A program made the translations under genes and the position numbers. DNA of 64,000 nucleotides from Balanoglossus misakiensis. Its lineage: Eukaryota > Animalia > Hemichordata. The stretch's first letter is position 1. Every line of letters begins with the position of its first letter. The stretch lies in assembly GCA_040954595.2 (NCBI GenBank), contig CM082586.2:2919124-2983123 (forward strand). Direction: 5' to 3'. Positions 8,358-29,862 of the stretch are shown here, in pieces. The notes beneath the pieces are model-generated. The model was not told where the DNA came from and searched no databases. It saw only the letters and a list, made by a program, of their open reading frames with translations.

Positions 8358-11300
8358 ATGAAGAAAAGTAAAATGAAAGGGAAGAAAAAGGCCTCGTCGC
8401 GATTTGACGATGAAGTTGAACAGCAGCAGACGGAGTCACTGCCTGTTTCATTTAAAAACATAAATGAACCCAACAGTGACTTGTTTTTAGAAGCACCGGA
8501 CCTACAGAGCAATATAGCGCCGTCTAAGTCCAGTTTCCAGCTGAAGAAAAAATCAGCAACAGTACCAGCACCACCACCGGGACCGGTGCCGAATTTCGAA
8601 GCACCCACCAAGATTCAGTTCCAGCCGCAACGCAAGGCTGTGCTGCCTGTTGCCCTGGAGAAAAAGAAACGAGTGTTTGCGGCAAAGAAACAGGCCGAAC
8701 CTGCTTACTTCAGCGACGATGAGGATGAGAACGAGAACGAGGAAGAGGATTTCTTGCAGGAGGAATATCAACTGGAGGAGGGTGACTATGAGTCGCTGGG
8801 ATACGCCGAGAATTTTGTCAAAGGTACGCCGTCGCAATTACCGTTCACGGCTGCCGACTTGCAGAAAGCCAAAGTCAAGATAGGGAAAGCCGCAGAGAGT
8901 AAGGAAAAAAAGCTACCAGCAGTAGGTAAGTTTTCCGGGTGTCCCTGCTTTGATGTTTTGCCGCGATCAAACCATCACCATGGCTGCTACATTAGCATGT
9001 GATTGTTAAACACCTGTTGAGTATCATCTGTTTTAAAACAAGATTAATAAATCGTATTTTCTCTTAAAATTCTAGTTGACCTCACAAGAGTGGATTTGTT
9101 GCGAAAACTAGACTCTGTTATTACAAGCCATATTCCAATCCACAGAATGAAGGTAAGACTTAGGTTTGCATAATTATTTGTGAGCTTTTGTATCTCATCA
9201 TAGTGATCTTCTGGCTCGCAATGGCGCCCTCTGTGTCAAGCATTGTATTTTTTTGTTTTTGTTTTTTCAAGCTGGTAAACCAAAACTATGATTCTGGGCT
9301 TGTTATGCCCTGAAAATTTGGGATAAATATATCGAGCAACATACATGCAAAATGCAACATATTTATATTATTTCAACATATTAATATTTAGTTATCACTC
9401 ATCGGGAGACCTGTCTATACTGAATACCTCACCACTCCTTTCACATATGATACCTTGTTCATCTTTTGAAATTAAGAATAAAATGTTTTGTTATGATCAA
9501 TTATATGATCAACTGTAATTTTGTCTTACCAGGATGTTGCTAAGACCGGTTTGCCTGGGAATATGATGAAAAGCAAGATGAGTTTTTATGGAATCGAGCA
9601 GACGACAGACATGGTGATTAAAGTGTGGCTGGACAACTGGACCAAAGAGAAATCCTCAAATTTGATCAGTCTGATGATGCATGGCTGTGTCAATATCACC
9701 GATGTGGCTGTGGAGTGGATTGCTGAAGCTTGTCCCAATCTGCAAACTGTAAGTTATCAATAAGAGGGATTTCCTTGTTCAAACATAATTTTTAAAAGTT
9801 TTGAGTCAATTTGATGATTTCTAAAGATTTCTCAGAGTCAGCCCTATACCTTTGTATGAAGTTTGGATAATTTTCTTGAGTCACCAGTGAGTCAGTGGTG
9901 CATCATATGGGCTTACAGGGCACACTGACCTTTAACTTTGTTTGCTATCTTGATTTACTTTTCTCACCAGGCCATCTTCAGTGGCTGTAGAAACCTCACA
10001 GACCGTTCTCTAGACGTTCTCCTGAAGAAGTGCACTAACCTATGGTACCTGTCAATGGTAGGCACGTCCGTTTCCTCGATCCCCGCTGATGCTGGTCGGC
10101 TGAAGTATCTCAACCTCAAAGGATGTCCTCTACATACTCCCATGAAAGAACAACTGGAGCCAAGAGAGGTTGATGTTGTCCAGTTTACCAGTGATTACTA
10201 CTCGGGTGAGTTACCAATGTTTTTCTTAAGATTACACTGGCAGTAGTTATCATATTTATTGATCATGCACTCATACTATCATTTCTGTACCTCTGTGGTT
10301 TATAGAGAACAAATTTACTTCATACGTTGCTTACAAAATGGTCCTGACTGGAGTTTGTGGTGGAAAGAAAAGTGAACTGGCCAATCAGATGGGGTTGACT
10401 TACAAAGAAAAGGGCAAAATGTGCAGTGTGCATGGAAACTGGACACCCAAGACCAAACAAAGTCCAAACAAGCAGATAGTGTATAATATCATGGAGTCTG
10501 ATGAAAAGGTAAGTGTTACAGTGGATTATTTTGGTCCAAAAATGACCTAGCCTGGTACATTCATTGAGTTACATATGAATTTTGGTCAACCAATCTTACT
10601 GTGTTTTGTTTTTGTTGTTGCTTGCAGTGTGTTCTGGATTTATTTACAAGTGAGAGATGTGTTTATGTCATAACCTGTGACCTGAATGATTCCAAGGCAG
10701 CTGAGAAGTGTGTGGAGTTCATTGGAAGTGTTTTAGTGCAGGTAAGGATGGTGGTATACATGTACATGTATTGTGATATGATCATGGAGACGAGAGGGGA
10801 AAATGATATGAAGGCTATGTTGGGGGTATGATGGTAGTGATGATGATGATGGTAATGGTGATTTCCCCACTGTTAATGGTTTCATGCATGCATACAAACT
10901 GTCACAAGATAAAATCTTATAATTACAAACAAATTTGTATTTTCCAGGCTGTGCATGTGTTCTTTGCGATTGTTGCGACTCATGAAGGCAAAGATGAAAG
11001 TCAGAAGTTGAAATCTCTGGAAAGTCAAGTACTGTCGCTGATGGACAAATGGAAGAAGACACTGGAAGAAAAGAAAGATGTACTAGAAAAGTAAGTTTTT
11101 ATCCTGCCATCCCTGTTTTAATGTGTATGGGTCCATTCATATCATTGAAAACAATGAAGTTGCTATGGTCTCTGTTTTATTTAAAGGAGAATATGTTCAG
11201 ATTTTCCAGTTAATAATAGCCAAATCCTCCCACAAACTGTTACAGTTGTGCTTCAGTATAGACGATTTCTTTGAAACCAAGTGTAAATTCTGTTGATTTA

Positions 11301-29300: not shown

Positions 29301-29862
29301 AACAAAGAAAGATGCGAGGAGTTCAACACCAACCCCGAAAGCAGCAGAAGTGCCTGAGAAAAAAGGAGATGGTCAGTATTACATTTAATCGTTCACCCCC
29401 AGTTCCCTCTTTAGTGGTCCAACTTTACCATAGAAAACAATGGGTTTGGACTGAACCATGGTGGTGAAAGGTTCAGTCATGAATAACAACTGTTTGAAGT
29501 TACAGAAATTTATGTGTATATCTGCTACTGCATTTGATAGTTTCTTCGTAACAAAGAATATGTAGTTTAATAGATTTGAATAACCGAGGTAGTTTCAGAT
29601 GTACATAACTTAGTAACTTTTACATGAGTTGGTACTCTATAAAAAATATGTTGTAAATATTTAGCCCTTAAATCATTATGAAATGGACTATACCGTAATG
29701 TAGAAGAACTAAATTTGTATTTATGTGTCTGTGTTGTTGATTTCAGATGATAAAAAGCATGTTAGTTTCAAGTCGGCTGGCATAGTCGCCGGAGCAGCTG
29801 GTGCCGCGAATAAGAAACCCAGTGGTAGCACTGAGCAAAGCAAAGCCTGTGTGATTCTGTAG
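8358..29862 (+). CDS. Giant tandem Roco protein: LRR_CC - pseudo-Roc-COR - MBT - LRR(EF-hand) - Roc-COR - TIR - TIR - CaaX (about 54 exons, about 3,200 aa estimated)
   Basis: ATG at 8358 follows a splice acceptor. In-frame GT-AG exons can be followed across the junction between the halves (17051-17167 into 17379-17921). Roc motifs: [49 protein letters not shown]. COR motifs: FLHDLGSLQHF, VINPQWIVDVM, YLPAGLFNRAQ. The last exon (29747-29862) ends SKACVIL*. Confidence 0.85.
9533..10205 (+). other. Cysteine-containing (FBXL/AMN1-type) LRRs of the Roco gene N-terminal unit
   Basis: LMMHGCVNITDVAVEWIAEACPNLQT / AIFSGCRNLTDRSLDVLLKKCTNLWYLSMVGT / LKYLNLKGCPL. Confidence 0.8.
12609..13033. repeat. 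(GA)n/(GAAA)n polypurine microsatellite in an intron
   Basis: About 420 bp of near-pure AG repeats; source of the ERER/SLSL ORFs. Confidence 0.95.
13310..13362 (+). repeat. Short interspersed intronic repeat, inverted copy at 16270-16323
   Basis: aagggccacaatcatctcacatgcatgtgcaaaaccagagactctggttaca matches the reverse complement of tgtaaccagagtctctggtttggcacatgcacataagacgattgtcgcccttt, with a few mismatches. Confidence 0.7.
13621..13673 (-). mobile_element. Partial copy of the ~90-bp MITE (family A)
   Basis: accctttcaccactatggtccagtccaaatccattgttatctatggtaa is the reverse complement of the 13981 copy's right part. Confidence 0.65.
13981..14070 (+). mobile_element. ~90-bp MITE (family A) with (TTAA)CCCTTTCACC...GGTGAAAGGG(TTAA) termini, piggyBac-like ends
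   Basis: The core cacccccagttccctct...gtccaactttaccatag..aacaatggatttggactgaaccatggtggtgaaagggttaa recurs at 15502, 29388, 42138 and 13621. Confidence 0.7.
15254..15833 (+). other. MBT (malignant brain tumour) domain within the Roco gene, 2 exons
   Basis: FEPGMRLEALDVKNPTLTCVATVVEV...IHFDGWGSNYDYWCEPTDKNLHPLGYCQHHKIRLQAP followed by FSWSVYLEEVKSVAAPYDLF. Confidence 0.92.
15502..15590 (+). mobile_element. ~90-bp MITE (family A)
   Basis: taccctttcacccccagttccctcttcagaggttcaactttatcatagaaatcaatggatttggaccaaaccatagtggggttaaaggg. Confidence 0.7.
17640..19760 (+). other. Typical (Ras-suppressor/Roco-type) LRRs with an inserted EF-hand exon (18818-18944)
   Basis: LNMFKNKLKKFP, IDIGSNNIEELP, LKASNTLISELP, LLLKGNLLSS, LKLDYQAIRKVP; EF loop DVDHNGMLTSKE; pre-Roc motif CPNLRTPPKEIV. 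Confidence 0.85.
19820..23210 (+). other. Intact Roc GTPase and COR domain
   Basis: G1 [9 protein letters not shown], G2 ITDGIDI, G3 WDFAGQ, G4 GTHAD, G5 VSSLTG; the COR motifs follow. Confidence 0.95.
23440..25980 (+). other. Two tandem TIR (TIR_2-type) domains
   Basis: TIR1: DVFMLYCH...LEIEGYSCW...IVMVFMSNEFERSAACRNQL...VVPVVL. TIR2: CFVSYCWH...LENHGVSCWMD...LFEDIAEGLKHADLMIACVSDEYARSKNCQMEF...LPVIIAVV. Confidence 0.88.
27815..27965. repeat. (ATGA)n/(ATGT)n/(GGAT)n tetranucleotide microsatellite in an intron
   Basis: tgaatgaatgaatg... runs. Confidence 0.9.
28632..28702. repeat. Exact 34-bp tandem duplication
   Basis: tagtcattatattttcctatcatgtgactgattc x2. Confidence 0.9.
28772..28942. 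mobile_element. Tc1/mariner-pogo(Tigger)-type MITE, about 170 bp
   Basis: TA|CAGTCAAAC...GTTTGACTG|TA terminal inverted repeats with TA flanks. Confidence 0.75.
29388..29475 (+). mobile_element. ~90-bp MITE (family A)
   Basis: ttcacccccagttccctctttagtggtccaactttaccatagaaaacaatgggtttggactgaaccatggtggtgaaagg. Confidence 0.7.

Follow-up and report, generated by a model that had tools for sequence, protein, structure and literature searches.

A 64,000-nucleotide window of contig CM082586.2 (assembly GCA_040954595.2) from the hemichordate Balanoglossus misakiensis raises the question of whether one very large gene encodes a kinase-less protein with two LRR-Roc-COR modules and two TIR domains and, if so, what such a protein would do. 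The initial annotation of this DNA had described a single in-frame chain of LRR, pseudo-Roc-COR, MBT, LRR with EF-hand, Roc-COR, TIR, TIR and a terminal CVIL, and had proposed it as an undescribed system. The present analysis confirms from sequence that this Roco-TIR locus reads as one gene encoding one polypeptide. The N-terminal module is, as judged by profile and fold-model comparison, a second LRR-Roc-COR unit with broken guanosine triphosphate (GTP)-binding motifs, and alignment shows the Asp/Ser/Glu set of nicotinamide adenine dinucleotide (NAD+)-cleaving TIR domains in TIR2 but not in TIR1. By the same comparisons the protein belongs to the catalogued ecTIR-DC 14 II family.

The gene model comprises 53 coding exons running from an ATG at 8358 to a stop at 29862 on the + strand, a span of 21.5 kb, with GT-AG borders at 52/52 introns. 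Its predicted coding sequence is single, as first supposed, with a length of 9,474 nt instead of ~9.6 kb, and translates without internal stops into 3,157 residues ending in CVIL. Exon candidates were scored for splice sites and open frames over 8.3-30 kb, chained by hand and then corrected at their boundaries; because exons were hand-picked, frame continuity alone is weak evidence for the model, and outside homologues provide the real test. The RefSeq protein XP_070533769 of Ptychodera flava (P0151, 3,084 residues) is colinear with the model in a single BLAST alignment (model residues 149-3078, 70.8% identity), with 47 of the 50 exons from 2 to 51 showing no model residue opposite a gap; exon 1 is 33% identical. 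Two neighbouring genes joined in the model, with a break at ~16-17.4 kb or elsewhere, would fit the Glandiceps talaboti RefSeq annotation, which splits the locus into the adjacent LOC144444213 (824 residues) and LOC144444214 (1,373 residues), as well as the many shorter models among database family members. This arrangement is nevertheless highly improbable: the 824-residue Glandiceps model (XP_077989756, P0004; 44% over model residues 850-1643) itself spans MBT to LRR, its break sitting within the LRR solenoid, and both it and the P. flava protein run straight across the suspected stretch, where exons 20-23 are 39-75% identical to the P. flava protein with no model residue opposite a gap. Single proteins of 2,750-3,300 residues exist in P. 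flava, amphioxus, molluscs, rotifers and Trichoplax, and neither AATAAA nor ATTAAA occurs within 15.0-18.3 kb of the window, the first such signals after the stop lying at 30238 and 30385.

Pfam searches of single exons recovered LRR, MBT, EF-hand, Roc, COR-A, COR-B and two TIR_2 stretches, the LRR, EF-hand and TIR1 matches falling below curated cut-offs; the P. flava protein gave the same families save EF-hand, for which it had no match. No Pfam protein kinase, NACHT, NB-ARC or ARM-SAM was found on the P. flava protein or on 52 of the 53 exons (exon 2, of 25 residues, was left out), in keeping with the kinase-less description and in contrast to LRRK1/2 and DAPK1. Pfam, folds and the end of the model thus bear out the originally listed domains and the single spliced chain. 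That layout had missed a SPRY/NHR-fold domain, two unnamed conserved domains and the loss of the catalytic Glu from TIR1.

The family was sampled as the best 120 of 143 matches among 7,989 candidates, obtained with the Roc-COR-TIR part of a homologue from a mollusc as query. By source name these homologues come from nine phyla (Placozoa, Nematoda, Rotifera, Annelida, Mollusca, Nemertea, Brachiopoda, Hemichordata and amphioxus), and this size-limited, mollusc-biased search returned no cnidarian, echinoderm, arthropod or vertebrate among the best 120 of the 143 matches. Because many members are closely related to one another or represent incomplete gene models, counts over the 120 homologues are not independent. 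A midpoint-rooted FastTree of the Roc2-TIR2 core (the model and 119 of the 120 homologues, P0155 being too short) places the B. misakiensis protein as sister to that of P. flava (support 0.996), followed by Glandiceps, which makes an acorn worm the most likely host. Mollusc subfamilies form stable clades; several paralogues per genome are present, with local expansions in scallops, Dimorphilus and Lineus. An exon 24 query was dominated by LRR proteins, with one true orthologue fragment among the 150 listed. Layout and motif states are conserved in sequence from Trichoplax to amphioxus, and the family is an old invertebrate one. Many homologues bear the automatic names 'serine/threonine protein kinase', 'LRRK1', 'MFHAS1' or 'pats1' though they have no listed kinase Pfam family.

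The first module is recognizable only at the level of profiles and folds. No Pfam Roc or COR was found within residues 370-915, and hidden Markov models (HMMs) of Roc2, COR-A2 and COR-B2 barely reach the region (1, 3 and 5 of 101 sequences, respectively, at E<0.01). A joined Roc2-COR2 HMM detects it in 13/101 sequences at the same threshold, with 0 matches in reversed controls; clear signal came only from profile-profile and fold comparison. Profile-profile alignment (hhalign) against Roc2-COR2 gave P=98.2% and E=2.9e-14, with 479 columns aligned in colinear order. A profile iterated on the module (best reversed-sequence control, E 0.044) finds it in 86 of the 100 homologues with more than 300 residues upstream of the second module; all 14 lacking a match have fewer than 650 residues there, and it is present in 64/64 homologues with at least 1,200. 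The module is near full length in 29 of the 35 MBT-bearing homologues, and in 63/100 its LRR-Roc-COR order is retained over at least 450 of the 673 profile positions, which argues that selection acts on the fold as a whole and not on a short motif. Structurally, the P. flava module as modelled by AlphaFold (predicted local distance difference test (pLDDT) 76.5, predicted template modelling score 0.78) has LRRK1, CtRoco and LRRK2 as its top Foldseek matches (E 1.6e-19 to 6e-17). It aligns with LRRK2 (6vno) at Z 19.3 and a root-mean-square deviation (rmsd) of 4.4 over 410 residues, with FBXL-type LRRs in front.

With G motifs defined as in PMC6337361 and PMC11463336, Roc1 carries the decayed P-loop GVCGGKKS (10350-10373) instead of GxxxxGK[ST], lacks DxxG and contains a helical insertion ahead of its last strand. 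Profile alignment, fold matches and these broken motifs together bear out the pseudo-Roc-COR first placed near the N-terminus. Only 2/65 alignment rows covering the site have a canonical P-loop, both from Trichoplax (P0261 and P0279, residues ~193-202); B. misakiensis and P. flava keep the decayed GxCGGKKS form, and the P-loop is gone in the remaining rows. Trichoplax Roc1 also has a G4-like motif, but its activity is uncertain because DxxG is absent. Intron positions compared by eye across the two modules gave one clear match, at phase 0 in the G5 motif (residues 556 and 2048), which carries little weight, and a complex prediction for P. flava Roc1-COR1 with Roc2-COR2, run without an alignment, scored 0.00 and speaks neither for nor against their pairing.

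The two TIR domains are paralogous (profile P=99.9, 30% identity) but unequal. TIR1 has the catalytic Glu in 1/120 homologues, from Trichoplax, whereas the Asp, Ser and Glu of TIR2 are all present in 118/120, the other two being gapped. Columns conserved at 90% or more number 28/157 in TIR2 vs 2/145 in TIR1, and the TIR2 pocket residues F2549, S2551, Y2552, W2554, D2595, S2629 and E2635 are each kept in 116-119 of the 120 homologues. Because this conservation is concentrated on pocket residues across nine phyla, it resembles that of an active site. The TIR2 triad aligns, in a weak match (E 0.051), with D33, S68 and E74 of Cat1, which line an active site formed between stacked TIRs (PMC12162218). 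TIR1 is retained in every non-truncated family member despite its absent Glu. As only TIR2 has catalytic residues, the asymmetry points to an enzymatic output rather than to TIR clustering alone. The canonical first P-loop and the TIR1 Glu of Trichoplax possibly represent a less-decayed ancestral state.

The tail downstream of TIR2 also forms the C-terminal end of four LRR-Roc-COR proteins that have no Pfam TIR (P0032, P0124, P0036 and P0002; E 4e-18 to 2e-9), these being the 4 matches in a scan of 150 unnamed LRR proteins, of which 34 have Roc-COR. Because TIR-less proteins share the tail, the TIR pair looks like an insertion separating COR from an older domain, possibly a general post-COR Cys/His domain that has no Pfam model; an atlas search with it gave no usable match. 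At the extreme C-terminus, a Cys at position -4 is found in 98/120 homologues, including Glandiceps, amphioxus and Trichoplax, vs a background Cys frequency of 2.2%, and the last residue of these CaaX ends is M in 52, L in 16, Q in 13 and S in 11. By established CaaX rules a CVIL end would direct geranylgeranylation, and the M, Q or S ends of most homologues are typical of farnesylation; the lipid-anchor motif noted at the outset is a conserved CaaX with predicted prenylation.

The second module would supply the switch. Roc2 keeps its G1 Lys in 119/120 homologues, the G2 Thr and G4 Asp in 120/120 each, and G3 in 118/120, so that the Roc originally annotated as intact has near-invariant G1-G5 motifs. 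The EF-hand, likewise expected, has a canonical loop in 81 of 113 ungapped homologues.

Between the modules lies a more variable region. The beta-sandwich of the Glandiceps orthologue matches SPRY (2yyo; Z 12.3, rmsd 2.5, 121 aligned) and NHR (2yue; Z 11.0) in a fragment model of mean pLDDT 60.4 whose first 160 residues are unreliable. Exon 16, which encodes part of this SPRY/NHR-fold region, had no Pfam match and, used alone as a query, no homologue among 58 candidates of at most 2,000 residues. Next comes the MBT. MBT methyl-lysine readers consist of two to four interlocked repeats; the B. misakiensis protein has one and amphioxus two. An Asp/Asn/Phe/Trp/Tyr pocket pattern, whose aromatic members we take to be the cage residues, is kept in the model and in most MBT-bearing homologues of the family alignment, in line with the annotated reader domain, which may bind methyl-lysine. 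MBT is found in 35/120 homologues; by Pfam, other members carry SPRY (11), PLAT (3) or C2 (1), and the Trichoplax slot holds SH3, MBT and chromo-like domains. Since homologues swap MBT, SPRY, PLAT and C2, the middle slot is modular and MBT an exchangeable accessory, not the core input it had been taken for. The unnamed domain after MBT is alignable in molluscs, amphioxus and annelids, and had no Pfam family, fold-search or atlas match, having been folded only within the Glandiceps fragment. An HG motif in hemichordates suggested a diadenylate-cyclase-like domain here; this assignment was rejected, the motif not being conserved.

Gerdol et al. 2017 reportedly define the ecTIR-DC 14 II family and may already state some of the points given below as new. 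Two ~3,000-residue proteins of Trichoplax sp. H2, TrispH2_001486 and TrispH2_004509, are placed in the family in PMC6321704. There, a 2,928-residue Trichoplax protein is drawn with the labels LRR, P-loop_NTPase, MBT, SH3, Chromo, LRR, EF-hand, LRR, Roc, COR, TIR and TIR, in an order taken here from the page layout of the text. Like the B. misakiensis protein, it has a ~3,000-residue LRR-Roc-COR-TIR-TIR layout with EF-hand and MBT, so that a family with nearly the same layout already had a name. The family is given as a domain list with no transmembrane segment and a function called 'speculative', and the passages and figure text considered here mention neither a whole N-terminal Roc-COR nor its decay, the TIR1/TIR2 asymmetry or a CaaX. 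RDD46213.1 (P0279, Trichoplax H2, 2,928 residues), matched to TrispH2_001486 by equal length and the same SH3, chromo, MBT and P-loop domains, is 43% identical to the model over 1,299 columns of the C-terminal half and 23% over 685 columns of the N-terminal module. It has the canonical first P-loop and TIR1 Glu, both lost from the B. misakiensis protein, which has SPRY where Trichoplax has SH3/chromo. From Aplysia, LRR-Roc-COR-TIR proteins that include MBT or EF-hand have also been reported (PMC9334734); one, the catalogued MBT-LRR-Roc-COR-TIR 'TLR' LOC101848126, is P0160 of the present set, and a longer member of its cluster (P0280) has a full first module and a CaaX. PMC5094078 reports a Trichoplax MBT form and actiniarian Novel Gene 1 (LRR-Roc/GTPase-COR-TIR_2), the latter at most ~1,300 residues by its figure legend and not among the 120 homologue matches listed. 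A Trichoplax Roco figure legend names MBT and TIR (PMC4104024).

Among better-known systems, LRRK1/LRRK2 and the Chlorobium tepidum Roco (PDB 8e04, 6vno, 6hlu, 8r4b) share the LRR-Roc-COR core that the B. misakiensis protein appears to hold twice; compared with LRRK1/LRRK2, it lacks kinase and WD40 and has a TIR output, a lipid-anchor motif and a pseudo-GTPase copy. TIR2 shares the active-site Asp/Ser/Glu set of TIR NADases such as Cat1 (PDB 9mud), whose autoinhibited, clustering-activated logic may by analogy apply here, with the Roc GTPase as switch and CARF, ARM-SAM, NB-ARC and NACHT all absent. The likeness to SARM1 and plant TIR-NLRs is one of general logic rather than of alignment. Prokaryotic AP-GTPase (Roc)-COR conflict proteins combine LRR, GTPase and COR with TIR among their swappable C-terminal effectors (Kaur et al. 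2021, PMC8195603). Those have a single module and fast-evolving LRRs, in contrast to the intron-rich gene, duplicated module and CaaX of B. misakiensis. In the searched literature, thin in subscription journals, only catalogues and no functional study of the family were found; the architecture is thus already described as a layout but not, there, in function. Nor did that literature speak of a Roco pseudo-GTPase, NADase residues or prenylation in connection with ecTIR-DC 14 II. Four sequence-derived points were not found in print: the duplicated module across the family (64/64 long members), the NADase set kept in TIR2 (118/120) with the TIR1 Glu in 1/120, the conserved CaaX end (98/120), and the retention of both first P-loop and TIR1 Glu by Trichoplax alone.

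The reading tentatively favored here, with confidence just short of even, is a TIR NADase that is prenylated, gated by GTP and kept in check by the protein's own pseudo-Roco module. We infer prenylation, GTP cycling, pseudo-module restraint, TIR2 stacking and NAD+ cleavage as its steps. The kinase-less double-Roco protein would be membrane-bound through its prenylated CaaX, the CVIL being geranylgeranylated. Intact Roc2-COR2 would be the GTP switch that turns on an NAD+-cleaving TIR2, and the decayed first LRR-Roc-COR and Glu-less TIR1 would act as non-catalytic scaffold or brake. At rest, by analogy with bacterial Roco proteins, the pseudo-module would replace the partner protomer of the GDP-bound or empty state and keep the protein off. 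Through the LRRs and the exchangeable middle module (SPRY and MBT), a ligand, or else Ca2+ bound by the EF-hand, would favor GTP loading, which would open this contact. Freed TIR2s of neighboring membrane-bound molecules would then stack, with TIR1 as spacer, into composite active sites that make cyclic ADP-ribose (cADPR)-type messengers or deplete NAD+ locally, likely in innate immunity or damage-induced cell death. Release on GTP is preferred over the GTP-dependent COR dimerization of the initial annotation because CtRoco, the best-studied bacterial Roco, behaves in the opposite way, being a dimer when empty or GDP-bound and a monomer on GTP (PMC5714945). A 2026 preprint reports that animal non-TLR TIRs with the catalytic Glu can make cADPR, and Roc and COR stand among the abbreviations in the legend, here the sole source, of its figure of active proteins (10.64898/2026.04.20.719644). 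Confidence is held down mainly because few Glu-bearing animal TIRs were active in that preprint: 12/61 in E. coli, with the TIRs of TLR2, IL-1R9 and IL-1R10 inactive despite their Glu. Other points also weigh against the proposal: the restraint, GTP-release and stacking steps rest on analogy with bacterial Roco, the Cat1-TIR2 match is weak, 22/120 homologues lack a CaaX, the CaaX exon is missing from the end of each of the two P. flava RefSeq isoform sequences, and hemichordates differ very little in Roc2-COR2 (exons 29-41, 80-100% identity). Fast LRR diversification, as expected of a pathogen receptor, is not apparent, no formal test having been made. A bolder version, possible but unlikely, would make the family a third class of switch-controlled animal TIR NADase beside SARM1 and TLR-type TIRs, from placozoans to amphioxus: a prenylated receptor with a Roco GTPase in place of the NLR ATPase, whose internally duplicated, decayed LRR-Roc-COR serves as built-in dimer partner, locking the enzyme off until GTP loading. 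Trichoplax, with both P-loops and both TIR Glu residues, would then be the ancestral state, and a double pseudo-enzyme conversion would be traceable within one protein.

An enzyme is not the only output compatible with this layout. The Roc-COR cycle could instead expose the TIR pair as a non-enzymatic scaffold that recruits MyD88- or SARM-like TIR adaptors at the membrane, the model closest to the earlier annotation and to the adaptor or regulator role hypothesized for ecTIR-DC proteins (PMC6321704). The 49/61 tested Glu-bearing animal TIRs with no detected activity (10.64898/2026.04.20.719644) and the Glu-less TIR1 kept in every non-truncated member suit such a scaffold, but the active-site-like conservation of the TIR2 pocket across nine phyla does not, and we regard it as unlikely. 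The strength of Roc2-COR2 conservation, together with the lipid anchor, the EF-hand, PLAT or C2 in paralogues and the stable mollusc clades, would equally suit a housekeeping or developmental membrane regulator in endomembrane traffic, cilia or cADPR Ca2+ signaling, akin to LRRK and the Roco proteins of amoebae, rather than an immune sensor. Paralogue numbers with local expansions, middle-slot domain swapping and the reported absence of vertebrate homologues for many ecTIR-DC proteins (PMC8662601) fit an immune or conflict role better, making this regulator quite unlikely. How the first module acts could also differ from restraint: its divergence, which far exceeds that of the second (P. flava and homologues from outside the hemichordates are about 16-22% identical in it), and the several-hundred-residue inserts it carries in some paralogues could reflect an independent binding platform or a trans partner of paralogues, with the second module an ordinary cycling homodimer. 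Because 63 of 100 homologues keep the LRR-Roc-COR order complete, this is very unlikely. Restraint of a prenylated, GTP-gated TIR2 NADase by the pseudo-module accordingly remains the preferred, tentative reading.

Table 1. Features of the Roco-TIR gene in window coordinates; domain limits and activities are predictions.
Feature	Positions	Strand	Basis
Whole gene	8358..29862	+	Splice-scored model; colinear with P. flava P0151
Exons 1-9	8358-8925, 9076-9152, 9533-9748, 9971-10205, 10306-10508, 10628-10741, 10948-11090, 11304-11415, 11550-11798	+	
Exons 10-18	11960-12160, 12437-12583, 13091-13286, 13474-13607, 13736-13880, 14102-14319, 14499-14834, 15039-15167, 15254-15491	+	
Exons 19-27	15742-15833, 16038-16152, 16378-16587, 16763-16950, 17051-17167, 17379-17921, 18258-18427, 18525-18681, 18818-18944	+	
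Exons 28-36	19235-19426, 19697-19862, 19968-20136, 20275-20421, 20538-20627, 20944-21050, 21171-21252, 21461-21607, 21802-21966	+	
Exons 37-45	22221-22319, 22497-22591, 22695-22842, 23093-23210, 23351-23546, 23734-23962, 24180-24272, 24514-24616, 24763-24911	+	
Exons 46-53	25086-25196, 25937-26122, 26932-27363, 27721-27801, 28041-28205, 28350-28447, 28962-29371, 29747-29862	+	
Low-complexity N-terminus, residues 1-190: basic start, then Pro-rich and acidic stretches	8358..9077	+	Sequence
Cys-containing (FBXL-type) LRR block, residues ~192-365	9081..10204	+	P. flava orthologue fold matches FBXL2/FBXL17 LRRs, Z 13.7
Roc1 pseudo-GTPase, residues ~372-575	10323..11606	+	Profile comparison; small-GTPase fold Z 13-15
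COR1 (COR-A, COR-B, Cys knuckle), residues ~576-913	11607..13879	+	hhalign; Foldseek; COR 3dpt Z 14.2
SPRY/NHR-fold beta-sandwich, residues ~995-1141, preceded by Cys/His-containing linker	14523..15167	+	AlphaFold model of Glandiceps orthologue
Single MBT repeat, residues ~1148-1250	15272..15830	+	Pfam MBT E 2.3e-25; L3MBTL1 fold Z 17.6
Unnamed conserved alpha/beta-then-helical domain, residues ~1285-1461, over the supposed gene break	16137..17167	+	Conservation of exons 20-23
Second LRR solenoid, residues ~1545-1890, with inserted EF-hand loop	17628..19794	+	Pfam; family alignment
EF-hand loop DVDHNGMLTSKE in LRR2	18845-18880	+	Canonical pattern
Roc2, intact GTPase motifs: G1, G2 Thr, G3 WDFAGQ, G4 GTHxD, G5 SSxTG	19807..20994	+	Pfam
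COR2 (COR-A, COR-B, Cys/His knuckle), residues 2066-2372	20995..23361	+	Pfam COR-A, COR-B
TIR1, predicted inactive, Gln2475 (23855-23857) at catalytic Glu position	23431..24269	+	Alignment
TIR2, predicted NADase: Asp2595, Ser2629, Glu2635 (25113-25115)	24520..26050	+	Alignment
Unnamed Cys/His-containing post-COR domain, residues ~2718-3005, with acidic low-complexity insert	26102..29028	+	Conserved columns
CaaX box CVIL and stop, in separate last exon (exon 53)	29848..29862	+	Sequence

Within the gene, three introns hold an ~80-bp element, recognized by eye (~13990-14070, ~15510-15585 and ~29390-29470), and a GA microsatellite fills 12596-13034. Upstream, and divergently oriented to the Roco-TIR gene, lies an LRR-Death protein gene with an LRR-rich exon and a Death-domain exon (3333-5937, - strand; Pfam LRR_8 E 1e-50, Death E 1e-14). 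Downstream on the - strand are an intronless open reading frame (ORF) for a rhodopsin-family G-protein-coupled receptor (32041-33096; 7tm_1 E 2.8e-34), an ORF with two death-effector domains (35043-36107; DED E 4e-28) and a multi-exon glycoside hydrolase family 65 gene (~36900-40400; Glyco_hydro_65m E 1.9e-19 on 38963-39730). Together, the LRR-Death gene, the DED ORF and the Roco-TIR gene make this a neighborhood rich in immune or apoptosis domains. A small spliced gene on the + strand (41548-43229) has a P-loop exon with weak MMR_HSR1, Dynamin_N and AIG1 matches and DxxG- and THxD-like motifs, presumably resembling IFI44-like GTPases. Positions 44003-64000 are an 88-bp satellite array whose units match one another at 94-98%. 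In its block at 44533-54554 the unit is the reverse complement of that in the blocks on either side, an inverted arrangement of ~20 kb centered near 54554 that could be real or a feature of the assembly.

The B. misakiensis protein is, on these comparisons, an additional member of a named family that is apparently uncharacterized in function. For LRRK2 there is still debate over how the Roc-COR cycle governs an output domain, and it is not settled which of the animal TIRs act as enzymes; the ecTIR-DC 14 II family joins both in a kinase-free Roco protein with a predicted NAD+-cleavage output that is easily measured. It also offers natural controls, since the first Roc and the first TIR are both predicted to be dead and the Trichoplax version has both catalytic signatures. 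The resulting predictions are sharp and cheap to check: dead Roc1, live Roc2, dead TIR1, live TIR2 and a lipid anchor, the less-decayed Trichoplax protein serving as control. Should TIR2 be inactive, the family would stay a catalogued scaffold of modest interest. If the favored reading is true, the first module would be the first Roco pseudo-GTPase module found in the searched literature, and the family would constitute a widespread class of invertebrate immune or death receptors, reported missing from vertebrates.

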